Origin: Patescibacteria group bacterium
GTDB taxonomy: Bacteria > Patescibacteriota > Patescibacteriia > UBA9934 > CAMTUG01
Assembly: GCA_038065815.1 (NCBI GenBank)
Contig: JBBTQF010000012.1
Coordinates: 1,663-65,662 of the forward strand
DNA: 64,000 nt
Direction: 5' to 3'
Every line of letters begins with the position of its first letter. Positions within the stretch are counted from its first letter, which is position 1. Below the pieces are notes generated by a model. The model was not told the DNA's origin. It made no database searches and was given only the letters and a program-made list of their open reading frames with translations. Below are positions 9,735 to 23,970 of this stretch, piece by piece. A program made the position numbers and the translations under genes.

Positions 9735-9762
9735 GTGATGGGGGTGATGGGGTCAGGTCCCG
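9735..9762 (+). repeat. REP-like palindromic repeat copy (GTGATGGGGTCAGGTCC).
   Basis: It shares the GGGGTCAGG core with 11 other copies in the window. Confidence 0.5.
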
Positions 9763-9875
9763 CCGTCGCTGAAGCTTTGGCGGGCAGGCGGGCTACGTAC
9801 CTGATCCATATTGCGCGGATCCAAGGTTCGCCTAGTCGTTCCTTGGGTAACGAATGTTTGGTGCTTATCGAAACA

Positions 9876-9900
9876 GGTCAAACGCACTAAAGCACTGAAC
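9876..9900 (-). terminator. Hairpin (GAGGGCGCT-ataca-CGAGCGCCCTC) just downstream of the NUDIX remnant. It is a possible terminator.
   Basis: An 8-9-bp GC stem lies 12 nt after the stop of 9912..10184. No clear T-tract follows. Confidence 0.25.
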
Positions 9901-9911
9901 TCCTGAGGGCG

Positions 9912-10265
9912 CTATACACGAGCGCCCTCTTCTACTTTTTGGTAGACAGATGCAAAATATTTTTTTAGATTATTTTGAGTCAATACGTTCATGACTTCGT
10001 CGATCGGGAACCAGCATATTTTGTCCTCATAATGTTCCGTTCGTGTTTGCGCGTCCATTTTTGCTTCAACAAGGTACATGTTGAGTTCAACGGGCTCCTG
10101 CTTGTCATTTTTATAACTAAATAAAGGCAACACCGTTTTTATTTTTCCCTCTATCCCTGTCTCTTCCAAAAGTTCTCGCTTCATAGCTTCTTCTGTCGTT
10201 TCGCTGGATTCGATTTGCCCCTTGGGAAAACTCCAGTCGTTTTGTTGACGGTCAATGCCCGGGGT
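9912..10265 (-). pseudogene. 5'-truncated NUDIX hydrolase remnant.
   Basis: The Nudix box G-x5-E-x7-REUxEExGU reads GQIESSETTEEAMKRELLEETGI. It is intact only when the frame is extended upstream of the annotated ATG. That open frame hits a TAG at 10266-10268, only about 8 codons before the box, whereas normal NUDIX proteins have 30-40 aa there. A REP copy lies 40 nt further upstream. Confidence 0.45.
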
Positions 10266-10308
10266 CTATGATTTGGTACTTTCTGAACAACTTTTGTGCT
10301 CAAAAAAT

Positions 10309-10335
10309 CACACATCACAGGCCTGACCCTGTCAC
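10309..10335 (-). repeat. REP-like repeat copy (CACATCACAGGCCTGACCCTGTC).
   Basis: It is the reverse-orientation copy of the GGGGTCAGGCCTGTGATGTG family. Confidence 0.5.
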
Positions 10336-10364
10336 TACAATTACCATGTCGGCAATGGTGTCTG

Positions 10365-11201
10365 CTACGAGCGACGCACGGAGCGGGCGACGGCCATGAA
10401 GTCAGCAATTTTTTGCGCGTCATATCGACGGGCGGCGACCACGATATTTGGACCAAGACGTTTGCTCAGGTCGACATCGCCCTCTTTGAAAGCGGTACCG
10501 ACAATTGTCGCGTCAAGGTACGGTGCAAACCGAGTGAAGTTCTCCGCGGTCATGCCGCTTCCCGTGAGCACGGCCGCGTCACCCGCCTCACGCACTGCCT
10601 CCGCACATTGTTCCACTGATGGAGGGTCACCGGTCCACTGCCCCGTGACAATAACACCATCCGCGCCAGACGCAGACGCCTCGCGCACAGACTCAACGAA
10701 TGGTCGCGGCGTGAGCATCGTCGCATGCTTCACCTGTACGTCCGCGAGAATTGCCACGCCCTCCGCGCCAAGCGCCGCGCGGGCGGCGAGCACAGCCGCT
10801 GGGTTGGCATAAAACTTCCCGTAGACCGTCTCGACAGAATCAACAAACACTGGCACGCGCACCATCACGCCGCCAAGCTTTTTGCATGCTTCGAACCCGA
10901 ACGCAAAATCGTTCCAGAGCGGCGTAATGCCCCAGGAGACATGCGTTTCTGGCACCAACACCTCAAGTAACTCCATGAAATGGGCACGCGTCTCTGGACG
11001 CATCTTCTCGTGCTTAGGCTTATCAAAATTGTTTTCAAAAAGAATGGCATCCACGCCGCCTTTCTGAAGGGCGCGTAGGTCCTGTTGCGCGCGCCCAAGG
11101 ACAACCGCCTTATCGCCCTCATAGTCTTCCGTCCCCTCAAGGGGGGAAAAGTGAATCATGCTGATCACCGCTGGCCGTACCTTCAAGGAGAATTTCTTCA
11201 T
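10365..11201 (-). CDS. BtpA/SgcQ-family TIM-barrel protein.
   Basis: The 278 aa start with an IHFSPLEG N-terminus and carry a GGVDAILFENNFDKP motif typical of the BtpA family. The gene is GC-rich, about 63 %. Confidence 0.5.
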   Translation of the reverse strand: MKKFSLKVRPAVISMIHFSPLEGTEDYEGDKAVVLGRAQQDLRALQKGGVDAILFENNFDKPKHEKMRPETRAHFMELLEVLVPETHVSWGITPLWNDFAFGFEACKKLGGVMVRVPVFVDSVETVYGKFYANPAAVLAARAALGAEGVAILADVQVKHATMLTPRPFVESVREASASGADGVIVTGQWTGDPPSVEQCAEAVREAGDAAVLTGSGMTAENFTRFAPYLDATIVGTAFKEGDVDLSKRLGPNIVVAARRYDAQKIADFMAVARSVRRS

Positions 11202-11261
11202 ATGATGACAGTATAGTATGGAAAAGGGCGCTCCGCGAGGGAGCGCCCGATTGAGTGCGGG

Positions 11262-12707
11262 CTACTGGGCGTTGAAGCGTCCGGAGGCCTTGCAAGTGAG
11301 CTGGACCTGGCTGGCGAGGAAAGCGGACACACGGCCTTCACGGAGCGCCTCGAGACAAATCCATGCGCAGTGCGCGAGTTTCTCGGAGTCCGGACCACGG
11401 CCAGCACGGAAACGCGCCAAATCATCGTCCATCATGCCGTTCGTGAGGTAGAGCGCGAGACCAGCGTTCATGGCGAGGTACTCCACGAGCTGACGGTCGC
11501 GGTCATCACAGCCAAGATGGACAGCAATACGATTGGCCTCCATGATCATGGCTTCTTCGTTGGGCACGAAGACGCTCATGGGGTCGCGGAACATAAGGCC
11601 AAAGCTCGCGGGCGTGAGCACCACGTTGGCGAGAAACTCGTCGCGCGCAGTGAAAGACATGAGCGAGGCAAAGGGCGAGAGCTCATCGAGCACGGCGAGG
11701 TCGCGGATGTGGCGGCTGTTGATCGCCTCATGCGCGTCGATGTGCTGGCTGAGGCCGCATACCACCGCGACGTTGCCGACGTTGTAGACGCCGTCCGCGT
11801 GCAGACGAGCGTAGGCGCGAGCAATTGTCTCCGGGTGCATCTTCTCGTTGACGCCGATCACCTTGTCCAAACGCGTGGCCGGGGACACGGGTGGCGTCAT
11901 GGGGCCGATGACGTGGTTGACGGTCTCACGGCGCGGCAGCAGGTGCGACAGGTCATGGATCGTCTTCCATGCGTGGGCGTCCGTGAAGTGGAAGCCGCTC
12001 ATCGCGAGCTCCTCCTGGACATCCCTCTTGGGGATGTCCACGATCACGCCCAGATTCTCGATCGCCTCCGTGGAGCCGACAGCCGAGGTGTTGCTGTACG
12101 AGCCGTGCTTGGCCGTGCGGTGGCCGAGGCTCGCGACCGTGAGGGCCGAGAGCGTGGAGCAGTTGATGGTCTTGCGGCGCACCGGGTCGCCGTTGACCAT
12201 CATCCCGCGGTCGCCACCCATGCCGCAGGTCTCGAGGACGCGTGGGCCGTAGTCCGGGAAGTGGATGATGTCCATCTGCGCGGCGGTCACCATACCAGCG
12301 ACCTCGTCCGGCGTAAGCTCGGCCCATGCCTCCTTCATGGCGAGGCCGGAGAGCATCTCGCGGGCGGCCATGCAGTCGCCGTCAGGACCCAGCGAGGCAT
12401 CCTTGAGGCAGTGGAACCGACGCTCGAGGTGGCCGTTGCTAGCGCGAAGAATGTAGCAGGTGGCAGCGAAGGCCTCCTGGAAGGTGAGGTGGCCACCGAG
12501 GGACGCCTTCACGAGCTGGCTGTAGCCGAACTCGCTCAGACAGCCAATGAGGCTGAGCTGCTTCGCGTTGGGCTGGCAGGGGTCATAGAGCGCCTCGCGC
12601 ATGGGGATCTTGGCCAGATAGCGCGCGCGGGCAGCCGCGAACTCAGGGCCGTGCATCCCCTGAACGAGATTGATCTTGCTGAGGGGCCTGCTGGCATGGT
12701 CGTTCAT
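11262..12707 (-). CDS. TrpD-family (glycosyltransferase family 3; anthranilate PRTase / nucleoside phosphorylase fold) protein with an N-terminal extension of about 130 aa.
   Basis: The motif CGMGGDRG...TINCSTLSALTVASLGHRTAKHGSYSNTSAVGSTEAIENLGV matches the TrpD GTGGD/KHGN region. It is 481 aa, about 65 % GC, with an AGGAGA Shine-Dalgarno 5 nt before the ATG. Confidence 0.6.
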   Translation of the reverse strand: MNDHASRPLSKINLVQGMHGPEFAAARARYLAKIPMREALYDPCQPNAKQLSLIGCLSEFGYSQLVKASLGGHLTFQEAFAATCYILRASNGHLERRFHCLKDASLGPDGDCMAAREMLSGLAMKEAWAELTPDEVAGMVTAAQMDIIHFPDYGPRVLETCGMGGDRGMMVNGDPVRRKTINCSTLSALTVASLGHRTAKHGSYSNTSAVGSTEAIENLGVIVDIPKRDVQEELAMSGFHFTDAHAWKTIHDLSHLLPRRETVNHVIGPMTPPVSPATRLDKVIGVNEKMHPETIARAYARLHADGVYNVGNVAVVCGLSQHIDAHEAINSRHIRDLAVLDELSPFASLMSFTARDEFLANVVLTPASFGLMFRDPMSVFVPNEEAMIMEANRIAVHLGCDDRDRQLVEYLAMNAGLALYLTNGMMDDDLARFRAGRGPDSEKLAHCAWICLEALREGRVSAFLASQVQLTCKASGRFNAQ

Positions 12708-13099
12708 GATGTCTCCTGGGGGCGTGAAAAGGAACGGTCGATCTGAGGCTTCCTAAACATAAAAGCCCCATCATCGCAAGCCTATGGGAATATAGGCTCA
12801 AGAGGACGGAGCTTCTCCGTGGTGCCACCTCTGATTATCCTCACGCGCGCCAAAACGCGCTTTGAGAAACTTTACGCACTCCGTGGATATGCGTTAGCCC
12901 TTGGTTACGGGGGCGTCCGGTCGGCCACAATAGCAGCCGACGTCTCACCGGGTCCAATTTCACGATCGCACCAGACAGGGCTCACACTATCTCCTGTTCG
13001 CTTTGCTGGCTCACGCTCGCTACTAACTCCCGGATCAATGACGTTGTCGATGAGAAGGAACTAAATTAACGATAGCAGGTCGAAAAAATCGTGTCAAAT

Positions 13100-13810
13100 C
13101 TATGCCTTGTTCTCGAGGAATTGGCATGTTTGTTCCAAAGCTACGGCAATAGCGGTTTCTAGACTATCACCAAGAATTATTCTTGCCACTGTGTGCGCAA
13201 AAAATGTGTCGCCTGCTCCAATCGTATCCTTCGTAGAGACAACGCGCGGTGGCTGAAACGACATGTGTCTTCCTTCTGTGTAAGCGTCGACCCCATTAGC
13301 CCCCTTTGTCACCAATAAAATACGCGTTTTTTGATCTTCAACACTTTCAGCTGGAATAAATGAAAGCTCCAGCTCGGTTGCTTTTAAGCACCGCACGTTT
13401 TTTATCCAATCTCCTTCAAATTCCTTCCAGAGTCGTTTCTGACCCGGAATATTTGGTGCACGGACAAAACCTTGAACATCCAGGTACAGCTCGTTGCATG
13501 TTTCAAAAACAGCAACTGGATCCCATTCACGGGACAGTGTTGATATAAGGGCTGATCCGCTTTTGCAGACAGGTACATTTTTATTCTGTGCAACTGGAGT
13601 GACACTACCAATCTCGCCTTGTTCGTTCACTTCGATACATACTTCAACAACTGGACCGACATGACAATGCTCCTCTATGCCCTGCATTTTCATAACGGCA
13701 GAAATAAACGTCGCCGGCCCCCCGATACGTTCGGAGGTTTTCCCCTGTTTATGGTCAATAACAACATCGTGAGCTACTGTTGAATACACGTCAATCGATG
13801 GTTGATTCAT
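13100..13810 (-). CDS. PfkB-family carbohydrate/nucleoside kinase (ribokinase-like), short form.
   Basis: PfkB signature-2 is DTIGAGDTFFAHTV and the length is 236 aa. Confidence 0.6.
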   Translation of the reverse strand: MNQPSIDVYSTVAHDVVIDHKQGKTSERIGGPATFISAVMKMQGIEEHCHVGPVVEVCIEVNEQGEIGSVTPVAQNKNVPVCKSGSALISTLSREWDPVAVFETCNELYLDVQGFVRAPNIPGQKRLWKEFEGDWIKNVRCLKATELELSFIPAESVEDQKTRILLVTKGANGVDAYTEGRHMSFQPPRVVSTKDTIGAGDTFFAHTVARIILGDSLETAIAVALEQTCQFLENKA

Positions 13811-13852
13811 AGGAAGAAATGAAGAGGGGAGCCGAGGGGCTCCCTTTTAAGT

Positions 13853-14662
13853 TCAGAGTTCTCCGCGAAGGATGCGCTCCAAGATGTCAACGACGCCCGT
13901 GGTGTAGTAACCGACGGAAACATAATCGGCACGTCCCTTGTAGTCTGCGTCAGCATTGCCAACCGCCGCATGCGTGACGCCCTTGCCGCAGTAATCGACC
14001 AGCGCATTGCCGATCATGACGATCCGGGAGTCGGGCACATGTATGCGCACGCAGTCCGTGCCCAGTCGCTTGGACGCCTCGGCCGCATGAATGGCGAGCA
14101 CCCCGTGCTGAAAGTTGGTCAGGACCCTGAGCTGGCTACGTTCGGACTTGGACTTGATCCAGGACTCCGCGCGTTCGAGAAGTGTGGTGTCCGGGATCAG
14201 TTCGCCTTTTTCTCCCGTATACCAGCAAAATCCGAGACAACTTGACCGCCGGCGAGTGTTGACCCCGATGATGCGGCGGCCAGTTTCTCCGAACCGTGCG
14301 ACGAGTCGATTTTCGACAACGTCGCCGAGCCAGATGTCTGCCGATTCCGCATCGGCGAGTCCAACCAGATCGTAGCGCAGGTGGTAAAGAAACTTCCGAA
14401 GCTCTTCACCAACTGCATACACAGGTTCTGCGCCCGGGCTGATAGAAACGACGGTGCCGAGCTCGGCAACGGTCGGTCCATCCATTCCAAGTCGTAGCTG
14501 AATGTCTGTGAGCGACCGCAGAGGAGAGTCCGAGTGGAGACCGATGCGGACCCCTTGCTTGCGTGCCCTCTGCACCACTTCGTTGATGCGCGAATCCGTG
14601 GTCTGCTCGGTGCAGACGTCCACCAGTGTTTCGTCTTTGTCGATGAGAACGAGCGTATTCAA
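13853..14662 (-). CDS. HAD-superfamily hydrolase, subfamily IIB (Cof-like phosphatase).
   Basis: HAD motif I is LIDKDETL (DxDxT-like). The C-terminal MIGNALVDY...AVGNA matches the HAD-IIB motif IV region. Confidence 0.5.
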   Translation of the reverse strand: MNTLVLIDKDETLVDVCTEQTTDSRINEVVQRARKQGVRIGLHSDSPLRSLTDIQLRLGMDGPTVAELGTVVSISPGAEPVYAVGEELRKFLYHLRYDLVGLADAESADIWLGDVVENRLVARFGETGRRIIGVNTRRRSSCLGFCWYTGEKGELIPDTTLLERAESWIKSKSERSQLRVLTNFQHGVLAIHAAEASKRLGTDCVRIHVPDSRIVMIGNALVDYCGKGVTHAAVGNADADYKGRADYVSVGYYTTGVVDILERILRGEL

Positions 14663-14718
14663 AGTACCTCTGAATGTGCAAAAGAATCTTAGAACACAAG
14701 AACCGTATTTGTCAAAGA

Positions 14719-15507: not shown

Positions 15508-15544
15508 ATGTATGCAAATGGGCGGATGAGATCCGCCCGAGAAT

Positions 15545-16453: not shown

Positions 16454-16568
16454 TCCGAATGAACTGCATCTATCGTATCATAACTTTTTTTCTCGTCAAT
16501 GCTCGTCGAACCAAAACCATAGACATTTTTCTACACACCCGCTAGAGTACGTACGTTCCCAGAAACAA

Positions 16569-16595
16569 ATGGGGTCAGGTCTGGGATGTGGGATT
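16569..16595 (+). repeat. REP-like repeat copy (GGGGTCAGGTCTGGGATGTGGGA). It is the left half of an inverted REP doublet.
   Basis: It forms a roughly 22-bp inverted repeat with 16625..16652 across a 32-bp spacer. Confidence 0.55.
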
Positions 16596-16624
16596 TATTG
16601 AGTACAAAAGTTATTCAGAAAATA

Positions 16625-16652
16625 CCACATCACAGGCCTGACCCCATCCGCG
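16625..16652 (-). repeat. REP-like repeat copy (CCACATCACAGGCCTGACCCCATCC). It is the right half of the inverted doublet.
   Basis: See 16569..16595. Confidence 0.55.
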
Positions 16653-16725
16653 CCATCCGCGGCGCGGCGCGGTGTACGGTGTAGATCATCTGCGCGTATT
16701 TTGATACCGTACTAGCATAACATCT

Positions 16726-17388
16726 ATGTATCTAATTGTCCTTTACGGCCCGCCGGCTGTTGGAAAATTCACGGTCGCCCAGCGACTGCAAAAGCAGACA
16801 AATTTTGCGGTTCTGCACAATCATGCGATCGCCGATTTGGCGTCTGCCATTTTTCCGTTTGGGTCAAAAGGATACGGGCCGCTAGCGGAACGCCTACGAC
16901 TGGAATGCATCGACGGCGCTATACGCGCCAAGCTCCCCGGTCTGATCATGACCTTTACATTTGGAGTCGAAACCGCTGGCGGCAAACGTGACGCCAGGGT
17001 ATTGAAAACTATTACGAACCGCGTGAAGAATGCCGGAGGCCGCGTTTCGTTTGTCCGACTTACGTGCGATCACGCGGAACTTTTCAAACGAGTGCGGCAC
17101 GCGGATCGAAAACGATTTCAGAAATTGACGAGCTCGTCTCTTTTGAGACGACTATTAAAGACCTATCATCTCGAAGAAGATATCGCGTTCACCGAGAGTC
17201 TTTCGATTGATACGACGCATCTGTCTCCCGCCCAGACGGCACGGCGGATTATGCAGATTGATCTTTCGTGGCAAAGAACAAGACCGGTCGTTCCCCAAGG
17301 GTATGACAAGGCTAAATCTGTAGACGTACGAAACACTATCAAACCAGCCAGCCGTGGAACGTTGTCCGAGGCCGGTCGAATGCAATAA
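16726..17388 (+). CDS. P-loop NTPase / small-molecule kinase-like protein (AAA_33-like) with a degenerate Walker A (GPPAVGKF).
   Basis: The N-terminus reads LIVLYGPPAVGKFTVAQRL. It is 220 aa and bounded by REP copies on both sides. Confidence 0.4.
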   Translation: MYLIVLYGPPAVGKFTVAQRLQKQTNFAVLHNHAIADLASAIFPFGSKGYGPLAERLRLECIDGAIRAKLPGLIMTFTFGVETAGGKRDARVLKTITNRVKNAGGRVSFVRLTCDHAELFKRVRHADRKRFQKLTSSSLLRRLLKTYHLEEDIAFTESLSIDTTHLSPAQTARRIMQIDLSWQRTRPVVPQGYDKAKSVDVRNTIKPASRGTLSEAGRMQ

Positions 17389-17389
17389 T

Positions 17390-17410
17390 AAAGACCTGAC
17401 CCCATTTGTA
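17390..17410 (-). repeat. Partial REP-like copy (AGACCTGACCCCATTTG).
   Basis: It shares the CCTGACCCCAT core. Confidence 0.35.
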
Positions 17411-17421
17411 CAAAACTGCTT

Positions 17422-17691
17422 CTAGGAACGATAGACATCATGATCACCTACCGTCAACAAGACAGCCTGATCTTTGTTTAGGTACATAAATACAATCCGC
17501 GTCGCGTAGTTCACGGAAAAACTGTATCTCCCCTGCAATCTCCCTTCCAACTTGTGCACGCGTAATCGTTCATGAGTAGCCGGATTTTGAAAATCGGTGA
17601 TTGCCCGCTTTACTTCTTCCTGAAGAAGCGGCGTAAATTTTTTATACGCGCGAACAAACCTTGCCGCGTAAGAAACCTCCAACATAGCCAA
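17422..17691 (-). CDS. Type II toxin, RelE/ParE family.
   Basis: The 89 aa contain HKLEGRLQGRYSFSVNYATRIVFMYLNKDQAVLLTVGDHDVY, which matches the RelE/ParE fold signature region. It directly follows the antitoxin ORF, stop abutting start. Confidence 0.6.
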   Translation of the reverse strand: MAMLEVSYAARFVRAYKKFTPLLQEEVKRAITDFQNPATHERLRVHKLEGRLQGRYSFSVNYATRIVFMYLNKDQAVLLTVGDHDVYRS

Positions 17692-17910
17692 CTATAAACT
17701 AGCCGCTAGGGCATCTAGGTCTCCGCGCAAAATCTTCCCTTCTTTTACCTCTTGCTCAGCGGCCAATACCTCAAACACGGCCTGATCTTCTATGTATTGC
17801 ACAATAGCCTTGCGAACGAATCCCGCTTTGGAATCAGCAATACCGCTTTTGACCATTTGATCAATGCTTAATTCAATTGCGGGGGTTAATGGGACAGACA
17901 ATGTAGACAT
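17692..17910 (-). CDS. Type II antitoxin (ribbon-helix-helix / ParD-like). The likely true start is MSTLSVPL at 17910; the listed ORF extends to 17982.
   Basis: It is a small acidic protein immediately upstream of the RelE/ParE toxin, and its stop abuts the toxin start. An operator palindrome lies in its promoter. Confidence 0.5.
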   Translation of the reverse strand: MSTLSVPLTPAIELSIDQMVKSGIADSKAGFVRKAIVQYIEDQAVFEVLAAEQEVKEGKILRGDLDALAASL

Positions 17911-17952
17911 AATCAGATGAATATATTTCAATATTAAATTATCATACATCTT

Positions 17953-17980
17953 TTGACCTGTCAACTTCAGGTGTCGACAC
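17953..17980 (-). promoter_or_regulatory. Promoter and operator of the TA operon. The palindrome TTGACCTGTCAA overlaps a -35 (TTGACA), there is a 17-nt spacer to the -10 TAATTT, and the 10-bp palindrome GTGTCGACAC lies adjacent.
   Basis: Read on the minus strand it is TTGACAggtcaaaagatgtatgaTAATTT about 25 nt before the antitoxin ATG. Confidence 0.4.
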
Positions 17981-18040
17981 AAGATAACTTTCTTAAAATG
18001 ACATTTTGGCTAAAGTTAGCCACTTCTTTAGACAAATCCA

Positions 18041-18068
18041 TTGACAAAAGGCCTTTTTGTGCTATATT
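18041..18068 (+). promoter_or_regulatory. Sigma70-like promoter TTGACA-16nt-TATATT, about 25 nt upstream of the 18092 ORF.
   Basis: Near-consensus hexamers are seen directly. Confidence 0.4.
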
Positions 18069-18091
18069 ATGTCTCCACCTAGAGGTCAATC

Positions 18092-18367
18092 ATGTCTTAC
18101 ATCCGCCAGAACGTGTCCGGTCTCGTCTACTGCGCCCTTCAGCTCTGGATCAACGTCGTCGGCCTCGGCCAACAGACGTTCAACCTCTTCCAGACGGGCG
18201 ATGTCGGATCGATGTCCCTCAGCTTCTTCCTCCCCTGTAGCATCGCCATCCTGACCCTCAGGATCCGGACCACGCGGGAGAAGCCAGACCTCCTGACGTT
18301 CCTCCCGTCCCTGCCGGCCCTTCTGCTCTACCCCATCCTGGTGCGCCTCATCTTCTACTACAACTAG
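18092..18367 (+). CDS. Small hydrophobic membrane protein of 91 aa, unknown function.
   Basis: It lies downstream of a strong promoter in a GC-rich patch. Two or three predicted TM helices are present. Confidence 0.3.
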   Translation: MSYIRQNVSGLVYCALQLWINVVGLGQQTFNLFQTGDVGSMSLSFFLPCSIAILTLRIRTTREKPDLLTFLPSLPALLLYPILVRLIFYYN

Positions 18368-18425
18368 CCCAGCTTCCGCCCGCTCTCGCAACCGCATCTC
18401 GTCTGAGATGCGGTTCGTGCGTTAA

Positions 18426-18971
18426 AAAGAGCTCGCGGCCGGAATCGCGGGTGGCGTGAAGAGCACAACTTGCGGGATTGGCACCAATAGGGCTGTCTAC
18501 GTAAAAGCAGACGGTTCGCTCTACCCCTGCGCAGATACCGCGGTGCCTCAATTCCGCCTCGGTAACCTGCGCACTGACTCCCTTCGCGAAATTTGGGAAC
18601 ATTCACCTGCCCTGCATGAGCTTCGGTCCCTCAACATCGACACCCTGAACCCACAATGCGCCGCCTGCGATGTCCGCTACCTCTGCGCTGGAAATTGCCG
18701 CGGAGAAAACTACCAGACGACCAAAGACCTGCGAAGCCCACACTTCAAGTGTGCCGAGATCCGCGATTCCATCCTGGAGCTGATGTGGATACTCACGGAA
18801 GCGCCCGACCTCTTCAAGTGCAAATCGAATCTCTGCACGAGACGGTTGCGGGCCCCTACGCCACCTCTGCATGACGTGCGACGCACAAATAGACGCCTAC
18901 CTGCCTGGACTACTCGGTCCGGGCAGTTTCTTTACAATCAAAATCAATCTGGGGCTTGTGAGCCTGTATGA
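18426..18971 (+). pseudogene. Remnant of a radical-SAM maturase; only the C-terminal SPASM/twitch auxiliary Fe-S domain survives.
   Basis: CGIGTNRAVYVKADGSLYPCADTAVPQFRLGNLRTDSLREIWEHSP...CAACDVRYLCAGNCRGENY carries the SPASM Cys pattern. The upstream in-frame stop is at 18423 and no CxxxCxxC radical-SAM core is present. The annotated start is GTG. Confidence 0.45.
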
Positions 18972-19598
18972 ATGAAATTGATAATCTCCCACGACCGATT
19001 CAATGCGAAGCCCAGCCTTACGAAGCCACACTTGCCACATGGGGAGGACAGGATATGGCACGACCAGACCATGACGCTTATCCACCAGTTCCAGTCGTTG
19101 CGCATCGAAGATGTAATTGGATTTTGGATTTTTTTGTAAATAACTCATAAGACTAAAAATGTTGTCTGTGTCCAAAAGAAGGCGGCCGCCGATCTTCATG
19201 TTGCGACTGATAGATAAGAGCGCTTTCTCTGGATCGATGCTCGCCAGGTCGGAAAAAAACCAGTAGGCACGGTCGTATTTTTTTTGAGGACGAGGTTAGT
19301 CACATCCGCCCAGAAGAACGTCGGTTGATGTTTGAGCGTCTTGTCGCTCGATTTTTTTGCCAGGGTGAGAAGATACGGGGAAAAATCAACCCCGTCCACG
19401 GAATATCCACGACGCGCCAGCGCCAGCACGTGGCGTCCTTGGCCGCAAGCGATATCTAATATCGATTGGCGTTTGTTCAACCCAAGTGCTTTACTAAAAA
19501 CGCAGTATCTTTTCCCACGTCTGCTTCTTGCAGAAATCGGGCATGTTCGCGCAAGTATGCCCCGTGCATCCCGTAATAATATTTTGTTCCTTTCGTCA
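18897..19598 (-). pseudogene. Class I SAM-dependent methyltransferase interrupted by two frameshifts.
   Basis: Frame A reads MTKGTKYYYGMHGAYLREHARFLQEADVGKDTAFLVKHLG* from the ATG at 19598. Frame B continues ...NKRQSILDIACGQGRHVLALARRGYSVDGVDF (motif I/post-I). Frame C (18897..19199) carries KIGGRLLLDT (motif III). Confidence 0.45.
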
Positions 19599-19648
19599 TA
19601 TCGGATGCGGGCTTTCGGGAGATAGTATAACACGGCTTTAGGCAGAAA

Positions 19649-19670
19649 TCGGGTCAGGCCGGGAATCCAA
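19649..19670 (+). repeat. REP-like copy (GGGTCAGGCCGGGAATCC).
   Basis: It shares the core. Confidence 0.45.
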
Positions 19671-19693
19671 ATTCCTGATTCCAATGCCTGATT

Positions 19694-19714
19694 CCAGACC
19701 TGACCCAATCCCTT
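19694..19714 (-). repeat. REP-like copy (AGACCTGACCCAATCCC).
   Basis: It shares the core. Confidence 0.45.
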
Positions 19715-19728
19715 ACAACGCACAATAA

Positions 19729-19775
19729 ACGGCCTGACCCCATTACTCCGACCCCATTACTCCCATCATCACAAC
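19729..19775 (-). repeat. REP-like copy with a duplicated tail (GGCCTGACCCCATTACTCCGACCCCATTACTCCCATCATCAC).
   Basis: It shares the core plus a CCCCATYAYTC sub-repeat also seen at 23941-23970. Confidence 0.45.
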
Positions 19776-20548
19776 GTGGACAAACACCATTCCTCCAATT
19801 GCGTGCGCGGAGTTGCGAGCAGTGCTTGTAAATCTAGTCCTCGAGTCGCCACAATTGATTCAATGATAGACAGGGCTATGAAATATCCCGCGCGATAGCG
19901 ATAAATATCGTCCGGATCGTTGGCAAAAAATAAGTCTAGCGCGAGTCCGTCAATGTCATTCCAGTGTTCGCGCATGAAGGTACGAAGAGCCGGCTGCTCC
20001 TGTACACAGGCATTCATCCAAACCATGCATTCTGCTTCGGGAATATAATCCGCCCAAAGAGCATCCTCGGCAGAAAAGCTCATCAGCGTTTTTGTCACAT
20101 ACAGAGCAACCCCCTCTGTCATCAGCTGCCTGCCGAGATGATTTTTCTCTTCGTGTGTGTGGAAAAAATATTCAGGGCGTGAGAGATAGTGAAGACCATG
20201 CACAATTTCGTGCGTTAAAAAAACGCCTACCTGCCGCTCGGTGGAGTAGGCCTCAAGCGGAATCCACACCAATGCGCGGTCGTCCTCAATAATGGCATGT
20301 CCGTTACTCGTTCCCTGACCGATCATCAAAACGAGGTCAATTTTATCAAGAGCAAAACCGTTTTCGGAAAAAGCTCTCTGTATATAAGGAAGGCGCGAGG
20401 ATATAAGAACGCGTGACTGTTGTATACGCTCCGTCTCATACGCAGGAATCTCACGCGTCTTTCGTTTGCCCCAATAGGAAAAGTAGTGCTCGAAAAGTTG
20501 AGTTCGGACAGGAGACGGCTGCTGATGCGTAAAATCAATAATGCGCAT
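19769..20548 (-). CDS. Putative zinc metallopeptidase (HExxH).
   Basis: THEIVHGLH within the 259 aa. Confidence 0.4.
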   Translation of the reverse strand: MRIIDFTHQQPSPVRTQLFEHYFSYWGKRKTREIPAYETERIQQSRVLISSRLPYIQRAFSENGFALDKIDLVLMIGQGTSNGHAIIEDDRALVWIPLEAYSTERQVGVFLTHEIVHGLHYLSRPEYFFHTHEEKNHLGRQLMTEGVALYVTKTLMSFSAEDALWADYIPEAECMVWMNACVQEQPALRTFMREHWNDIDGLALDLFFANDPDDIYRYRAGYFIALSIIESIVATRGLDLQALLATPRTQLEEWCLSTL

Positions 20549-20604
20549 AAAGGATGAGCCCGGCCCGCGCGTAACGCGGACCGGGCATGAGGTGGGTCGC
20601 TACT

Positions 20605-21270
20605 TCACGCCACCCGGCGGTTCGCCAGGTCGTCGGTGAGGGACCCGAAGTTGTTGAAGCTGTACCACAGCTCGGTCGAGATGAGCGCCGAGGCAAGGAA
20701 CAGGGCGTGGAAGTTGTGCCAGCCGGTGTAGAGCTTGGCGAACGCGGGGCGGATGTTGCCCACGCGGTTTTCCTCGAGCACCCGATGCACCTGGCCGGGG
20801 AGGGCCACGACGATCTCGATCTGCGTGATGAGGCGCTCGGTGTCGGACCTGAGCATCGCGATGCGCTCGTCGAACGTGTCGAGCATGCGGTAGAAGCCAC
20901 CGGAGCACATGATCTCCTGCGCCTCGTTCCACCTGATCTGGTCGACGCGCTGGCTCGTGACGAGGGAGTCGCCGACCGCCGCCAGGTCCACCGTCTTGAG
21001 CGACGGCAGATCCTCGTAGCCGTTCTCGTCCATCTGGCCGCGCAGGTCGGCGACACAGGCGGACATGCTGTTGAGCTCGTCGATGGAGGCGCGCAGGTTC
21101 TCGATGATGGGCGCCGTGTCACCGGTCTCACCGTCGAGCTCGCACAGGATGACGTCCTCCAGTCTCACGTTGGCCGTCTCCAGCCGCACGGTCGCGAGCG
21201 ACAGGAAGCGCGAGAGACGCGTCGAGTTCTTCAGGTAGCTACTACACGGTTGGTGATTTTTACCACCCAT
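20605..21270 (-). CDS. Hypothetical protein in a GC-rich island with a C-terminal hydrophobic helix.
   Basis: The 221 aa have a sensible amino-acid composition and an AAGGA Shine-Dalgarno 9 nt upstream. The overlapping plus-strand ORF 20587..21348 is Arg/Val/Gly-rich antisense-like. Confidence 0.3.
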   Translation of the reverse strand: MGGKNHQPCSSYLKNSTRLSRFLSLATVRLETANVRLEDVILCELDGETGDTAPIIENLRASIDELNSMSACVADLRGQMDENGYEDLPSLKTVDLAAVGDSLVTSQRVDQIRWNEAQEIMCSGGFYRMLDTFDERIAMLRSDTERLITQIEIVVALPGQVHRVLEENRVGNIRPAFAKLYTGWHNFHALFLASALISTELWYSFNNFGSLTDDLANRRVA

Positions 21271-21502
21271 GGCGGTTTATCCTTTTCCCCGATTGGGGAC
21301 GTTATGCACGAGAATGTACCCTTTCATTTTCACACACGTTTCCAATAGATGTCAACGACAAAGAAATGGGGGTGAGGCACGGATAACGGGTTTCGGGTAA
21401 CTCGAATAACCGCCGTCCTCGAGGTACGGGCGGGGGCTTGATTCTATTGGTCCATCCCATGCCTCGGGGACGGGATTGGGCAGTGCAAGTGATTCCCGAT
21501 TC

Positions 21503-21525
21503 CCGGCCTGACCCCATCTGCACTA
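21503..21525 (-). repeat. REP-like copy (GGCCTGACCCCATCTGCAC).
   Basis: It shares the core. Confidence 0.45.
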
Positions 21526-21530
21526 AAACC

Positions 21531-21556
21531 CAAGACCTGATCCCATTCCCGCACCA
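21531..21556 (-). repeat. REP-like copy (AGACCTGATCCCATTCCCGCAC).
   Basis: It shares the core. Confidence 0.4.
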
Positions 21557-21786
21557 GATTCAACGATCTGGGCGAACTCGTAGAAGCCAACCACACCCAG
21601 ATGCGGTACTATAATCATCGATGGATCCACTCGAGCCTCAAAATGCCGCCAGTAGCCTTCCGAACCAGGCACGAAAATAAAACAACGGCCATGATGGCCG
21701 CCTAACTCAACTCATTCATCGTCGGTTTAAGGAAACAAAAGTGTCTAAAAAATGAGGGCCATACCACTCCGCCTTCGTCGTGTTGA

Positions 21787-23004
21787 TTGTTGCAAAACCT
21801 TGTGAACCAAACTGTCGTTAAAAAGAACATTTTAAACTACTATCTTGCGCACGTGTTTAGTGGTGTATCTTTTATTTTACCAATTACCGTTCTTTACTAC
21901 TCTTCTTTTGGGTTGTCTTTTCTCGCCATTGGTTCGTTGGAATCTATTTTCCTTCTTGTCGGTTTGGTCTTCGAAATACCTACAGGCGTTATTGCGGATC
22001 TTATTGGTCGCAGGCGAATGAGCGGATTGGGTATGCTTTTGATCGCCTTTGGAATGCTCGTTGTTGGTCTTGGTAGCACTTATCTGGCTTTTGTTGTTGG
22101 ACAACTTCTTTTTGGAATTGGAGCAGCAATGCGATCCGGTGCCGACGCGGCACTTATGTATGATTCTTTGGACGCTCATAATCAGGCCGATCGCTACGGT
22201 CGTGTTGAAGGTCGCAGTTTTGCTTTATTTAGTATCTTTGGGGCCATAGCCGCTCCAATAGGGGCTTGGCTTTTTGTTATTAACCGTCGACTACCATTTT
22301 TTTTGGACGCCATTTTTATTACTATTGCCGCTCTATTTTATGGGCTAATGGTGGAGGTGAGGCGGCTGAAGTTAGAACAGCGGCCCAAACCTTTTAAGCA
22401 AATTTTTCTGGAGGGCATCAAAGATATTATTACTAAACCGATTGTCGGATGGTACATTGCGACGACAGTCTTTCTCTCATTGATTGCTGCTGTCTTTGTC
22501 AGTCTCATCAACCAGCCACTATTGGTTGCTAGCGGGCTTTCCGTTCAAGAAATTGGGTACCTCTTTGTTCCTGTCTTGATACTACAGGCCATTGTGTCCG
22601 TTTTCGCTGAGAAGGTAGAGAAGCGATTAAAGGAGCGGCTGTGTCTTTTTATTATCATTCTTCTTCCTGGGATTTCTTTATTGCTGATGGGGACAAAAGT
22701 TGCTTTGCTCATTTTTCTCGGTCTTCTTCTTTTTAGCGGCAACAAGGGTTTCCACTATCCTATTATGAAACAATTTCTTCAACACCGTCTTAATACAGGC
22801 ACTCGAGCCACAACGTTGTCAATACAAAACTTTATTGATAGTCTCGCTGGGATTATTTTCTTGCCGGTGTTTGGATTTTTGCTTGATTCGGCCTCGATTG
22901 TGACAAGTACTCGTTGGATCGGTGTAGGCGCACTAATTGTTGGACTGTTTCTTTTATTATCTCGAAAATGGAGTCAGATCACTGGTATTTTTAGAAGGAT
23001 CTAA
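21787..23004 (+). CDS. MFS-family transporter.
   Basis: The 405 aa contain about 12 TM segments and the MFS motif GVIADLIGRRRMSGLG between TM2 and TM3. Confidence 0.65.
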   Translation: MLQNLVNQTVVKKNILNYYLAHVFSGVSFILPITVLYYSSFGLSFLAIGSLESIFLLVGLVFEIPTGVIADLIGRRRMSGLGMLLIAFGMLVVGLGSTYLAFVVGQLLFGIGAAMRSGADAALMYDSLDAHNQADRYGRVEGRSFALFSIFGAIAAPIGAWLFVINRRLPFFLDAIFITIAALFYGLMVEVRRLKLEQRPKPFKQIFLEGIKDIITKPIVGWYIATTVFLSLIAAVFVSLINQPLLVASGLSVQEIGYLFVPVLILQAIVSVFAEKVEKRLKERLCLFIIILLPGISLLLMGTKVALLIFLGLLLFSGNKGFHYPIMKQFLQHRLNTGTRATTLSIQNFIDSLAGIIFLPVFGFLLDSASIVTSTRWIGVGALIVGLFLLLSRKWSQITGIFRRI

Positions 23005-23032
23005 GCGCCGACGCACTTAGATCCTTATTTCG
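22997..23032 (+). terminator. Rho-independent terminator of the MFS gene (GGATCTAAG-cgccgacgca-CTTAGATCC then TTATTT).
   Basis: The 9-bp stem includes the stop codon and is followed by a T-rich run. Confidence 0.5.
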
Positions 23033-23036
23033 AACC

Positions 23037-23970
23037 GGATGGGGTCAGGCCTGTGATCTGTGATGAGATAGCTTGGCTATGCGACAAACAGTAGTTCCTG
23101 CCAAGCCCAAAAACTTTGCTACTGCTTTCCCGGAATACTCAAAATAATTAAGTGCCAGCGCGATCGCCGCATCACGCTCCTGTTGAGTCGCAACTCCATC
23201 AAACAAAACTTTCAATGTTGGCCTACCGTCCATCCTTTGTGCGGCAACAATCTCATCTGCTGAGACACTCATATCAACTCGATCGCGCACTTCATGAATG
23301 AACTGCTCCGATCCTAAAATTCCACCCTTGCCAACAGCATCAAAAGGCGACGTACGCCCGATGCCGTCTTGAATAAAACTTCGATATGCTTTCTCCCTGC
23401 CTTGTTTACGATTGCTAAAATGTCCCAATGCATCCTTCTTCGCCAACCAATCTGGCGCCACCTCCAGACCAGCCAAGGCTCGATAGCTGCTCCATTGATA
23501 ATCCGACGGGTCATCAACCATTTTTGCCCGCACAGGATTAAGCACCACATAACGAATAACCTCGAGAAGATATTCCTGCTCCTCAACCAAAAAAGCCTTA
23601 AATCGCCCTTGAAATAAGTGGCCGACGTGTTTGTGTTTGGCGTTGTACCATTGCGTGTAAGTCGCGTTAAGATTTTGCATTCCTTTGGACAACGTGGGAT
23701 CGATCGTCTCAATAACAAAATGATAGTGATTGCCCATCAAACAATAACTGTAGCAACGCCAATTAAACTTTTTCAGTACTGACGAAAAAATGAAAAGAAA
23801 CTGTTCGCGATCTTGATCGGAAAGAAAAATTGAACTCCTTGCGTTGCCGCGAGTAGTGATGTGATAAAAAGCACCTGGAAATTCGATGCGTAGAGGGCGC
23901 ATTAATGTATGGTATCACACATCACAGACCTGACCCCATCATTCTCATCCCACCGACCCCATCCCTGTGG
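23037..23970 (-). mobile_element. REP-RAYT-REP unit: a REP-associated tyrosine transposase gene flanked by inverted REP copies.
   Basis: The forward REP is 23041-23067 (GGGGTCAGGCCTGTGATCTGTGATGAG) and the reverse REP is 23916-23970. The Y1 HuH transposase lies between them. Its stop codon TGA is supplied by the REP itself. Confidence 0.65.
23045..23902 (-). CDS. rayT: REP-associated tyrosine transposase (RAYT; IS200/IS605-like Y1 HuH transposase, PF01797-like).
   Basis: The N-terminal FYHITTRGN, the HuH motif GNHYHFVIE, and the catalytic-Tyr region YVVLNPVRAKMV...YQWSSYRA match the widespread MARPLRIEYPGAVYHVTSRGN...DNHYHLL...NPVRAGMV transposase family. Confidence 0.7.
   Translation of the reverse strand: MRPLRIEFPGAFYHITTRGNARSSIFLSDQDREQFLFIFSSVLKKFNWRCYSYCLMGNHYHFVIETIDPTLSKGMQNLNATYTQWYNAKHKHVGHLFQGRFKAFLVEEQEYLLEVIRYVVLNPVRAKMVDDPSDYQWSSYRALAGLEVAPDWLAKKDALGHFSNRKQGREKAYRSFIQDGIGRTSPFDAVGKGGILGSEQFIHEVRDRVDMSVSADEIVAAQRMDGRPTLKVLFDGVATQQERDAAIALALNYFEYSGKAVAKFLGLAGTTVCRIAKLSHHRSQA

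Follow-up and report, generated by a model that had tools for sequence, protein, structure and literature searches.

In the window, the whole 64-kb stretch of DNA that was analysed, we identify an element that is, with a probability of about 0.8 for the explanation as a whole, a TIRtron, in which a gene for a TIRYT (TIR-associated tyrosine transposase) lies between terminal inverted repeats. As part of the same explanation, the gene product is assigned to TnpA_Y1 subclass 2.1, a candidate placement made by shared features and not by published HMMs or a tree, and the ten extra repeat copies nearby are probably non-coding derivatives of TIRtron ends, in the form of three inverted doublets and five solo ends. 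The host is a groundwater member of the Patescibacteria (CPR), the lineage at which the original prediction had guessed. The element type is little studied yet already described, and it is not a classical REP/RAYT system.

The whole unit is ~905 bp long (~23036-23943), and its gene is present in one copy in the 64 kb. As had been predicted, inverted copies of the repeat surround the gene; their arms (23038-23064 and 23914-23940) are 27 nt long and 93% complementary. Each terminal repeat consists of an outer 13-nt core, ATGGGGTCAGGYC, followed by two tandem heptamers (TGTGATS TGTGAT). The 3' repeat does supply the transposase stop, a TGA within CCTGACCCC (23045-23047), and contains the last seven codons of the gene (SHHRSQA) as well; 12 nt separate the inner end of the 5' repeat from the ATG.

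The 285-aa product matches Pfam Y1_Tnp at 8.4e-13, a comparison that the original prediction had named as its own test. The N-terminal Y1 HUH domain contains H59-Y-H61, the catalytic Y118 in RYVVLNPVRA and then W137-S-S, and the family invariants are all present, H59, H61, R117-Y118 and N122-P123 among them; the HYH and NPVRA hallmarks described earlier are in place, but the catalytic tyrosine is not the one in YQWSSY. By numbering from the printed alignment, Y118 aligns with Y115 of E. coli TnpA_REP (4ER8), reportedly the catalytic residue of that protein in the 2012 work of Messing et al. A profile match to 4ER8 was obtained (E 2.9e-4), and when an AF2 model (pLDDT 85) was analyzed by Foldseek, 4ER8 was the best match (E 1.2e-7, TMt 0.72), followed by the TnpA proteins of IS608 and ISDra2. 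The C-terminal extension comprises 145 aa, with a helical, HTH-like domain predicted at ~aa 225-285; it matched HTH folds with a probability of 0.9-0.99 but E>0.1, and no significant Pfam HTH match was found in the window protein itself. Among 28 homologues, HTH_23 was matched in 10, HTH_38 in 5 and HTH_28 in 3. Judged by its sequence, the product is an intact Y1 HUH protein of a RAYT-related clade, and public protein sets already contain many members of its family from Patescibacteria and Uhrbacteria. The more specific RAYT assignment made earlier stands as far as the nearest structure is concerned, but not with respect to the C-terminal HTH or to the NCBIfam RAYT equivalog NF047646, for which the score of 73.9 bits is below the curated cut-off of 80.

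The repeat itself is real. At ≤2 mismatches, 14 matches to ATGGGGTCAGGYC were found in the window versus 1.82 expected (largest shuffle, 5), and 12 of the 14 are exactly the positions given in the original prediction, all in 9.7-24 kb; the remaining two (22968 and 34045) are at chance level. The 20-nt motif originally proposed is sound in its outer 13 nt, but the full GGGGTCAGGCCTGTGATGTG has just 5 copies at ≤3 mismatches, the remaining copies sharing the outer 13 nt alone and differing in their inner tails. The 8-mer GGGTCAGG occurs 12 times in the window, always between 9750 and 23929; its occurrence at 18250, within an ORF, is probably due to chance. Site 21534 reads GGGATCAGG and lies outside these 12 occurrences. 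Inward-facing pairs, in which a plus copy is followed by a minus copy, are spaced at 573, 66, 49 or 888 nt, and the distances from minus to plus copies are 1.5-6.2 kb. The remaining 50 kb of the window contain no repeat copies; the dense REP usage proposed earlier was seen only as a local 14-kb cluster.

Table 1 Coordinates of the gene-bearing unit, its repeats and related features in the window.
Feature	Position	Strand	Basis or remark
TIRYT gene, 285 aa	23045..23902	-	Pfam Y1_Tnp, structure matches, family-invariant residues
Terminal inverted repeat, 3' gene end: cggATGGGGTCAGGCCTGTGATCTGTGAT	23036..23064	+	inverted-repeat match
Terminal inverted repeat, 5' gene end: gatgATGGGGTCAGGTCTGTGATGTGTGAT (on minus strand)	23914..23943	-	inverted-repeat match
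TIRYT-family terminal inverted repeats, ends denoted GGGGTCAGG			
ATGGGGTCAGGYC copies	9747, 16569, 19648, 23039	+	≤2 mismatches
ATGGGGTCAGGYC copies	10320, 16635, 17393, 19697, 19731, 21505, 21534, 23927	-	≤2 mismatches
MITE/REPIN-like class-A inverted doublet, between divergent genes	16569..16647		36-nt arms, 7-nt gap, non-coding
Class-B inverted doublet	19648..19709		core + GGAATC-type tail
Doublet, degenerate left arm (GGGGTCTATGATTTGG...) and class-A right arm	10261..10332		adjoins Nudix remnant
Solo repeat end	9747..9759	+	58 nt past end of collinearity with contig L008
Solo repeat end	17393..17405	-	5 nt after stop of AAA_18 gene (16726-17388)
Solo repeat end	19731..19743	-	outward; partial terminal octamer (GACCCCAT)
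Solo repeat end, class-B tail	21505..21517	-	motif search
Degenerate solo end (ATGGGATCAGGTC)	21534..21546	-	directly before short ORF fragment
Imperfect palindrome ATTGGGTCGGCTGAACCGAT (minus-strand reading), tentative	57156..57175		in 105-nt spacer

The copies outside the unit are of two classes: those of class A have the same tails as the element of the window itself, and those of class B carry the core followed by a GGAATC-type tail that resembles the tails of paralogous elements in a related genome. The tails of the doublet at 19648-19709 resemble the repeats flanking two genes of a CPR relative (P0002 and P0005) and not the window gene's own repeats. A doublet similar to that at 16569-16647 is present in another Patescibacteria MAG; in a further Patescibacteria genome, sampled from the same well, the class-A copies number only 5, on 3 contigs. 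The solo end at 9747 could alternatively be the outer partner of the copy at 10320-10332. The earlier statement that all copies are intergenic holds loosely. The doublet at 10261-10332 adjoins a Nudix remnant (~9912-10265, minus strand) that is 5'-truncated and covers only positions 28-122 of the 134 in the Pfam profile. Further copies have as neighbours a methyltransferase with a frameshift and an IS-like remnant that is weak, and the region contains pseudogenes.

Folding was confined to the inverted doublets. Single repeat units formed no hairpin (dG 0 to -0.2 kcal/mol, a level that shuffles reach as well), whereas DNA folds of the doublets at 16565-16651 and 19644-19713 reached -27 kcal/mol (z = -9.1) and -11.9 kcal/mol (z = -2.2), respectively; in the doublet at 10261-10332, hairpin folding is lost. 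The self-complementary cores attributed to the motif, TCAGGCCTGA and CACAGGCCTGTG, are absent throughout the 64-kb window, in which only the 8-nt CAGGCCTG is found (3 copies), and no GTAG or CGTC tag was found at the repeats. These observations bear on a classical REP/RAYT (REPIN) system, in which short extragenic hairpin palindromes dispersed genome-wide owe their mobility to a RAYT that acts in trans and is domesticated, single-copy and vertically inherited. We consider this reading quite improbable, even though the Y1 domain is nearest to E. coli TnpA_REP, NF047646 is scored near its threshold, the gene is single-copy in the window with inverted copies on both sides, the doublet at 16569-16647 folds in a REPIN-like manner, and JGI names some homologues 'REP element-mobilizing transposase RayT'. 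In addition to the missing hairpins, cores and tags, the sub-threshold score and the restriction of the copies to 14 kb, an extension with an HTH is typical of subclass 2.1, where REPs near the gene are not found. Moreover, the gene is found at different loci in different relatives, one of which has two paralogues that are 72% identical, unlike the vertically inherited group 2 and 3 RAYTs (PMC5581495). What survives of the REP/RAYT label first applied to this locus is a Y1 gene of a RAYT-related clade with cognate repeats; the repeats are not REPs.

The association of gene and repeat extends well beyond the window. P0002 and P0005 share 63% and 60% identity with the window protein; ATGGGGTCAGGTC lies ~40 nt upstream of the ATG in both, and CCTGACCCCAT lies over the stop in P0005 and 24 nt inside the 3' terminus of P0002, a longer gene. 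Flanking repeats are likewise arranged around a 62%-identical gene in another Patescibacteria MAG, and in two CPR relatives the gene is bracketed by (G)GGGTCAGG ends. Among metagenome homologues of 42-50% identity, 60 of the 70 that were testable have flanking inverted repeats starting with (G)GGGTCAGGTCTT. Across ~60 loci in unrelated contexts, the information content is zero up to the G-run, where it climbs steeply; the core's TGA serves as the stop codon in 19 loci, and in ~19 others the stop, though 14-15 nt further upstream, is within the repeat as well, and the 5' repeat keeps a fixed distance from the gene start. A Legionella plasmid, predicted to be mobilisable, carries a family member of 41% identity with the same layout and (G)GGGTCAGG ends, and a near-identical 23-nt repeat is found in Patescibacteria, Thermoanaerobaculia, Acidobacteriota and Gammaproteobacteria. 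The repeat tails of the relative's two paralogues are self-matching and mutually different, and at most homologous loci the ±5 kb around the gene contain no repeats beyond the two that flank it. As read from these sequences, the gene is cognate to the repeats.

This linkage is relevant to a reading in which the repeats are MITE ends moved by an unrelated DDE transposase, with the weak IS-like remnant at ~21550-21705 as a relic of that enzyme and the Y1 gene as a mere passenger. The repeats act as classical terminal inverted repeats, the doublets are MITE-like, and the ORF fragment directly beside copy 21534 resembles an integrase-core C-terminus. That match, however, is weak (rve_2, E = 0.11), and a passenger gene would not account for linkage in 60 of 70 independent loci, for a stop codon built into the repeat or for the fixed 5' distance; the lack of a target-site duplication at the units also counts against it, and we regard it as highly improbable. 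IS3-type ends, furthermore, begin with TG, not GGGG.

Comparison with related genomes places the unit at three different sites in two of them. A relative's contig collinear with the window at 47.7-63.7 kb contains a complete unit (P0005) where the window has a 105-nt spacer; nucleotide homology to a close relative stops at window position 23032, 3-6 nt outside the 23036 repeat; and collinearity with a relative's contig (window 8142-9689) ends just before the solo end at 9747, all in presence/absence comparisons for which divergence blurs the exact junctions and gene loss is indistinguishable from insertion. Breaks in synteny, for which the original prediction had proposed to look, lie only a few nt away from repeat ends in related genomes. 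The syntenic spacer contains the imperfect palindrome at 57156-57175, noticed post hoc, which matches the joined ends ATGGGGTCAGGCCTGACCCCAT with 5 errors, a match that arose by chance in 5 of 20 whole-window shuffles (~0.25 per window); the palindrome may represent either a remnant or a site preferred as target. Across the ~60 unrelated contexts, the sharp end of conservation at the repeat ends is the signature of a relocating discrete unit. No presence/absence polymorphism was found among six assemblies of the window's population (99.8-100% identity), and therefore there is no sign of recent activity. The unit would move by transposition, and its transposase may still be active.

The protein might instead be a domesticated, immobile DNA-binding or DNA-processing protein, with the 13-nt cores as binding or regulatory sites, for example for HTH autoregulation or a replication-linked role, and with the extra copies produced by local duplication and decay. 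Consistent with this are the one copy per 64 kb, the identical placement in all six assemblies, the two flanking repeats at most homologous loci, the DnaA-domain-IV-like HTH and the 5' repeat, at which binding could control expression; host functions are also possible for non-IS TnpA_Y1 proteins according to Quentin et al. (PMC6006769). We nevertheless judge it unlikely, given that the window lacks the unit at a site where a relative, in a syntenic context, carries it, that the unit occupies three sites in two genomes with sharp boundaries, that its repeat recurs in distant phyla and on a plasmid predicted to be mobilisable, and that gene-less doublets exist, one of them beside a truncated gene.

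For the TIRtron, a mechanism may be proposed by analogy. By way of a 5'-phosphotyrosine link, the N-terminal HUH/Tyr domain would cleave single strands of DNA and join them again, with use of H59/H61 and a metal ion and with Y118 as nucleophile, as IS608 TnpA and E. coli TnpA_REP do. Because a unit ends in inverted repeats, not in two hairpins on the same strand, its two ends would base-pair on single-stranded DNA; a doublet would become a hairpin and the gene-bearing unit a panhandle, with the paired stem as the putative substrate. The C-terminal HTH may add sequence-specific binding to the conserved core or the heptamers. The unit would move or be lost whole, from repeat end to repeat end and without target-site duplication, and copies would build up locally. 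New here are the 13-14-nt core retained across ~60 uncultured homologues, its sharp boundary, the lack of target duplication, and the presence/absence of a TIRtron at a syntenic site.

Among known systems, the TnpA proteins of IS200/IS605 elements (IS608, ISDra2) share the Y1 HUH catalytic fold (Foldseek E ~1e-4 to 1e-5), the lack of target-site duplication and, presumably, the single-stranded DNA chemistry; these elements, which are usually multicopy, bear subterminal hairpins on a single strand at their ends instead of inverted repeats, and encode a TnpA of ~130-155 aa that lacks an HTH. RAYT/TnpA_REP with REPs and REPINs (E. coli YafM, PDB 4ER8; Nunvar 2010; Bertels & Rainey 2011) provides the closest solved structure and has in common the fold, the HUH and Y-x-x-x-N-P motifs, inverted repeat copies flanking the gene, and gene-less inverted doublets that give long REPIN-like hairpins. 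The window differs in its single unit, which lacks a hairpin and a GTAG tag, in a protein that is ~120 aa longer, contains an HTH and is below the NCBIfam RAYT cut-off, in a repeat family that is small and local in the examined sequence, and in a gene position that varies between relatives. In subclass 2.1, and especially 2.1.2, the proteins are long and have a Bac_DnaA_C, HTH_23 or HTH_28 domain at the C-terminus, and REP hairpins are not found beside their genes (Quentin, Siguier, Chandler & Fichant 2018, BMC Genomics 19:475). The window protein is similar in being among the longest Y1 proteins, in its HUH and Tyr core with a Ser motif just past it (WSS here), in a C-terminal HTH related to these domains, in the absence of adjoining REP hairpins, and in a patchy taxonomic distribution that suggests horizontal transfer. 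Genes for non-IS TnpA_Y1 proteins predominate in larger genomes and are very likely to occur in those >5 Mb (PMC6006769), whereas the host here is from a group known for small genomes. The same authors consider TIRYT/TIRtron to be probably subclass 2.1. As far as the portions of its original description used here extend (Di Nocera, De Gregorio & Rocco 2013, BMC Genomics 14:522; PMC3733652), the TIRtron has a RAYT-like Y1 gene between long terminal inverted repeats that are not REPs, follow a GGGGWSAS consensus (GGGGTCAG in the window) and may overlap the 3' end of the gene; its copies are single, dimeric or grouped, its families are only moderately abundant, and divergent TIRYT genes can share one genome. 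The inner repeat tail of the window (TGTGATS x2) differs from the commonest tail, TTGAAATAT, and the host, a Patescibacteria (CPR) MAG, belongs to a group not named in those portions; in the other respects listed, the window element resembles the TIRtron.

When we searched the 64-kb window with the 13-nt core ATGGGGTCAGGYC, allowing up to 2 mismatches, 14 matches were found against 1.82 expected from shuffled sequence (largest shuffle, 5), which rules out chance or low complexity as the source of the repeat. The original prediction had listed a recurring motif, and 12 of the 14 matches coincide with its positions. All 12 copies lie within 14 kb (a count for the window only), and the occurrences of GGGTCAGG in the 64-kb window all fall between 9750 and 23929. 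By a crude estimate of non-ORF space (3391 nt inside 9.7–24 kb and 3086 nt outside), the probability of such confinement by chance is ~4e-4 when the 12 copies are counted singly or ~0.01 for seven independent sites; chance confinement is unlikely. The full 20-mer that had been proposed as the motif is present in five copies only, the remaining copies having the outer 13 nt alone in common. Inward of this core, the tails fall into class A (TGTGATS-TGTGAT), class B ((G/T)GGAATC-type), and a third, T-rich class. The sequence GGGGTCAG, a match to GGGGWSAS, is found in both arms of the gene-bearing unit and in 8 of the 12 copies; those at 10320, 19648, 19697, and 21534 depart by one base within the G-run.

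Single units do not fold (ΔG 0 to −0.2 kcal/mol), and no GTAG or CGTC was found beside the core. The self-complementary cores TCAGGCCTGA and CACAGGCCTGTG, which the motif had been said to contain, occur nowhere in the window. Hairpins form from doublets only, in which two gene-less repeats lie inverted and close together: the segment 16565–16651 gives −27 kcal/mol (z = −9.1) and 19644–19713 gives −11.9 kcal/mol (z = −2.2); the doublet at 10257–10336 is decayed. We also rejected the possibility that the repeats belong to a known RNA family: on them, the Rfam search (E up to 1) returned only a spurious miRNA-precursor match, which lies on a doublet and has 32 bits where the gathering score is 90. 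The repeat family is real and non-random and has a cognate Y1 gene.

This gene is bracketed by inverted repeats of 27 nt that are 93% complementary. The inner end of the 5′ repeat lies 12 nt from the ATG, and the 3′ repeat, as had been read from the sequence, supplies the stop codon: the final seven codons lie within it, as does the TGA, which is a stop in the transposase gene. Directly after the neighboring MFS gene, just outside the end of the unit, is a hairpin (GGATCTAAG-N10-CTTAGATCC, then TTATTT) that is probably the MFS gene terminator and is conserved in a close relative (L165/L166).

The 285-aa product matches Pfam Y1_Tnp at 8.4e-13, in keeping with the transposase assignment made originally. 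In an alignment of the window protein with 27 homologues, H59 and H61 (HUH), R117-Y118, N122-P123, and W137-S138-S139 are invariant; the last is a serine motif after the core, and a conserved serine motif right after the catalytic core is a feature of TnpA_Y1 subclass 2.1 (PMC6006769). A PDB search with the window protein as a single sequence gave no match; the profile of the 28-sequence alignment matched 4ER8, the structure of E. coli TnpA_REP, with an E-value of 2.9e-4 and with Y118 opposite Y115. The nucleophile is therefore placed in RYVVLNPVRA and not in YQWSSY, where it had been assumed to lie. The AlphaFold model of the protein (pLDDT 85) likewise has 4ER8 as its best Foldseek match (E 1.2e-7, TMt 0.72), followed by the TnpA of IS608 and ISDra2. 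Residues ~225–285 form a small helical bundle in the AF2 model, and the best fold matches of this C-terminal part are all HTH, namely sigma region 4, DnaA domain IV, and DeoR (probability 0.9–0.99, but E 0.15–1). The C-terminus aligns with those of the homologues, and among the 28 sequences Pfam matches HTH_23 in 10, HTH_38 in 5, and HTH_28 in 3; no significant Pfam HTH match was found in the window protein itself.

An identical protein is encoded on contig CAYHTD010000001.1 (69.9 kb) of GCA_964359465.1, a 'Patescibacteria group bacterium' MAG, and on Hainich groundwater assemblies; the guess at a CPR lineage was correct, the source assembly being a Patescibacteria group bacterium MAG. Two paralogues in a related CPR genome, P0002 (63% identity) and P0005 (60%), both on JGI contig Ga0209515_10000540, have ATGGGGTCAGGTC ~40 nt upstream of the ATG; the stop codon of P0005 is covered by CCTGACCCCAT, and P0002 has a longer ORF, with the motif 24 nt inside its 3′ end. 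Repeats likewise flank a 62%-identical gene of another Patescibacteria MAG sampled in the same well. The same arrangement recurs in Legionella adelaidensis, where a plasmid carries a 41%-identical gene whose only annotation is 'transposase'. Among 80 homologous metagenomic loci (42–56% identity), 70 had enough flanking sequence to be tested, and in 60 of these (G)GGGTCAGGTCTT begins the best inverted repeat that the upstream flank forms with the downstream one. Information content at the G-run goes from zero to its maximum and then decays ~14 nt inward (60 left and 61 right ends). The two ends of one element tend to match for 3–4 nt further outward, and no target-site duplication was found. 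The core's own TGA serves as stop codon in 19 loci, and in about 19 more the stop lies 14–15 nt upstream, still inside the repeat. The link between gene and repeat is general, and Patescibacteria members of the family are already common in public data.

Plasmids held one full-length homologue, that of Legionella, and 2.9 million viral contigs yielded one match, so phages are no usual vehicle. Most relatives have just two flanking repeats within ±5 kb, and a few loci have dense clusters of the core (L136, L126, L109, and L125), with 12 copies in 9.5 kb in L136. In L125, four cores also stand in tandem immediately upstream of the gene, spaced 17 nt apart.

Within the window, the distances from a + copy to the next − copy are 573, 66, 49, and 888 nt, and those from − to + are 1.5–6.2 kb; the strand alternation and the short + to − distances therefore define inward-facing pairs with ATGGGG outermost. 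Three of these pairs are gene-less doublets and five copies are solo repeat ends; the unit is accompanied by local MITE-like and solo derivatives. The solo copies may instead be halves of larger composite units, such as one formed by 16569+ and 17405− around the AAA_18 gene. Class-B tails are closer to the ends of the relative's paralogues than to the ends of the window's own gene, and the class-B copies may descend from an element now gone from the window. The neighborhood of the copies is partly decayed: a Nudix remnant without the first ~27 profile positions starts at the exact outer edge of a doublet, and a methyltransferase gives a full-length match only once two frameshifts are repaired. 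The segment 17400–21760 contains gene fragments plus small ORFs without Pfam matches.

Coordinates of the repeat copies, the gene-bearing unit, and other features of the window
Feature	Coordinates	Strand	Remark
Copies of the core (≤2 mismatches)	9747, 16569, 19648, 23039	+	
Copies of the core (≤2 mismatches)	10320, 16635, 17393, 19697, 19731, 21505, 21534, 23927	−	
Gene-less doublets	10261–10332, 16569–16647, 19648–19709		
Terminal inverted repeats	23038–23064, 23914–23940		
Y1 transposase ORF	23045–23902	−	
MFS gene hairpin	22998–23031		
Methyltransferase	~18900–19602	−	
SPASM-domain fragment	18456–18971	+	Within 17400–21760
Possible integrase-core C-terminal fragment	~21550–21705	+	Weak (rve_2, E = 0.11)
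Segment open on both strands	18086–18397		312 nt; called on opposite strands by the annotators of this genome and of relative L008
Spacer palindrome	57156–57175		Imperfect
Separate MITE-like element	40503–40665		163 bp
T-box leader match	12799–13047	−	
Glycos_transf_3 (TrpD-like) gene	11262–12707		
Long ORFs on both strands	11262–12746	+/−	
Giant ORF	24872–34024	−	3050 aa
Repeat-containing protein	57220–59406		728 aa
Periodic coding repeat	63812–63994		Window end

Locus L010 of the related CPR genome is collinear with the window over 47.7–63.7 kb and carries a complete unit (P0005) between an FG-GAP gene and the next gene; at this position the window has only a divergent spacer of 105 nt. An imperfect palindrome in the spacer matches the joined ends ATGGGGTCAGGCCTGACCCCAT with five errors, and it is nested in a larger palindrome (GTCAAT...ATTGAC). 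Joined-ends-like matches were obtained in 5 of 20 whole-window shuffles, one in each (~0.25 per window). Because the palindrome was noticed post hoc, it is handled as an unexplained lead, for which a remnant, a footprint, and a preferred target are all conceivable. In a close relative, the contig with the MFS gene (P0122; protein 85% identical) matches window 21786–23032 at the nucleotide level; this match covers the MFS terminator hairpin and ends 3–6 nt outside the repeat, beyond which lies an unrelated 425-aa gene. As a candidate empty site for the window's unit this contig was rejected: it has a breakpoint at the repeat end and no clean empty site. Collinearity with L008, also of the related CPR genome, ends at 9689, and the solo copy at 9747 follows 58 nt later. 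Of the testable breakpoints that bear on the suggestion of repeats at synteny breaks, two are ≤60 nt from a repeat end, and the third (21786) is ~240 nt from the copy at 21534–21546. The window and L008 each have a 213-aa gene upstream of the unit; no homology was found between the two.

The relative's two paralogues are 72% identical, and each has self-matching ends with tails unlike those of the other, as would be expected of units copied whole. Sequence comparison gives hints that the unit relocates, leaving MITE-like derivatives where synteny is broken in a CPR genome. No population polymorphism was found among six Hainich assemblies, so that current activity stays an inferred property; the same uniformity would be consistent with a domesticated, non-mobile role of the gene, which we regard as a live but rather improbable alternative.

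When GTDB was scanned with the class-A 19-mer, 72 loci were found, compared with ~35 expected by chance by our own estimate; the source assembly is not among these 72 loci, and a homologue is encoded only in one of them (L082). The scan did return the other Patescibacteria MAG of that well, in which 5 class-A copies lie on 3 contigs. It also showed a near-identical 23-nt class-A repeat in several Thermoanaerobaculia MAGs and in one MAG each of Acidobacteriota and Gammaproteobacteria, a distribution suggesting horizontal spread or else very strong constraint. This 23-nt repeat, GGGTCAGGTCTGTGATSTGTGAT, has two arrangements: in Thermoanaerobaculia SMAG_U9447 (L014, L016, L025, L057, and L081) a short hairpin, TTTTCTAC...GTAGAAA, comes after it, and in SMAG_U4688 (L030, L031, L036, and L041) it is in doublets. 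It occurs on many contigs of these Acidobacteriota MAGs, with no homologue of the gene within the 8-kb loci.

Several other features were observed in the window. The separate MITE-like element occurs once and has perfect-core 27-nt inverted repeats (GGGGTCTGTCGCCAAATGTGCTTTTGA; 93% complementary) with AAG on both sides, perhaps a 3-bp target duplication; it starts with GGGGTC and does not fit GGGGWSAS. The T-box leader match (73.9 bits, E 1e-14, below the Rfam gathering score of 93) lies upstream of the TrpD-like gene, in whose region there are long ORFs on both strands, the minus-strand one of 481 aa with the Glycos_transf_3 match and the plus-strand one of 458 aa, probably a by-product of higher local G+C. 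The giant ORF adjoining the element has a faint CBM_4_9 match only and is split into 2223-aa and 772-aa genes in Hainich assembly L003. The 728-aa protein contains 192-nt FG-GAP-type repeats and 204-nt Cys/Asp-rich repeats, and the repeat at the window end has a 15/27-nt period (GGCTACTGGYTCYTC...).

By homology, the N-terminal domain of the transposase would use a phosphotyrosine intermediate to cut and join single-stranded DNA. Since the inverted repeats at the ends have no hairpins of their own, the natural single-stranded substrate would be the stem of paired ends. Pairing of the ends of one unit would give a hairpin in the doublets and a panhandle in the 0.9-kb unit, and the putative HTH may bind sequence-specifically to the invariant core or the heptamers. 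In a more speculative reading, to which we give a probability of about 0.2, TIRYT units (a TIRYT being the transposase of such a unit) may be autonomous, still-mobile ISs that cross phyla, CPR included; they would transpose by a Y1 mechanism not previously described, in which the ends pair on single-stranded DNA to form the substrate, a fused DnaA-like HTH reads the 13-nt core, and excision or insertion proceeds via palindromic joined ends, the spacer palindrome being a trace at an 'empty' site; gene-less doublets would be shed as MITEs that mark rearrangement points in small genomes.

TIRYT/subclass 2.1 is the second-largest TnpA_Y1 subclass, found in 14.9% of strains in a 2018 survey (PMC6006769). 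No protein of this group is known to have been studied experimentally. The present locus and ~60 relatives provide a clean definition of the unit: its ends at (G)GGGTCAGG are sharp, the stop codon is inside the repeat, heptamers come after the 13-nt core, and there is no target duplication. Short oligonucleotides and a mini-element of 0.9 kb would thus allow a direct test of what the enzyme does. In annotation, the RAYT/REP label should be given to such genes only after their repeats have been checked. The picture of CPR biology is unchanged.

Among known Y1 systems, IS200/IS605 elements have same-strand subterminal hairpins and a TnpA of ~130–155 aa, whereas here the repeats are inverted and non-folding and the protein has 285 aa. 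REPs are self-folding imperfect palindromes of 20–40 nt with a 5′ GTAG/CGTC, in contrast to the unfolded, untagged units of the window, and the window protein scores 73.9 bits with the REP-associated tyrosine transposase equivalog NF047646 (RAYT/TnpA_REP; Nunvar 2010), below the curated cut-off of 80. With the palindromic cores also absent, the REP/RAYT label of the original prediction is not retained. The term TIRYT was found in only two papers of the literature searched, PMC3733652 and PMC6006769. The former describes TIRYTs as RAYT-like genes between terminal inverted repeats that share GGGGWSAS (majority type) and sometimes overlap the gene end, and their repeat families as 'moderately abundant', in singles, dimers, or groups (PMC3733652). 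Subclass 2.1 comprises long proteins with a C-terminal Bac_DnaA_C, HTH_23, or HTH_28 and no REP hairpins near the gene, and probably corresponds, according to Quentin et al., to the TIRYTs of Di Nocera 2013 (PMC6006769). The window protein is a Y1 (HUH + Tyr), RAYT-like protein with a fold match to 4ER8 and, as in subclass 2.1, a serine motif (W137-S138-S139) just after the core; its gene is flanked by terminal inverted repeats, not REP hairpins, and GGGGTCAG fits GGGGWSAS exactly. The element is a TIRtron/TIRYT, subclass 2.1-like by these shared features, in a CPR host, and belongs to a known, under-studied kind.
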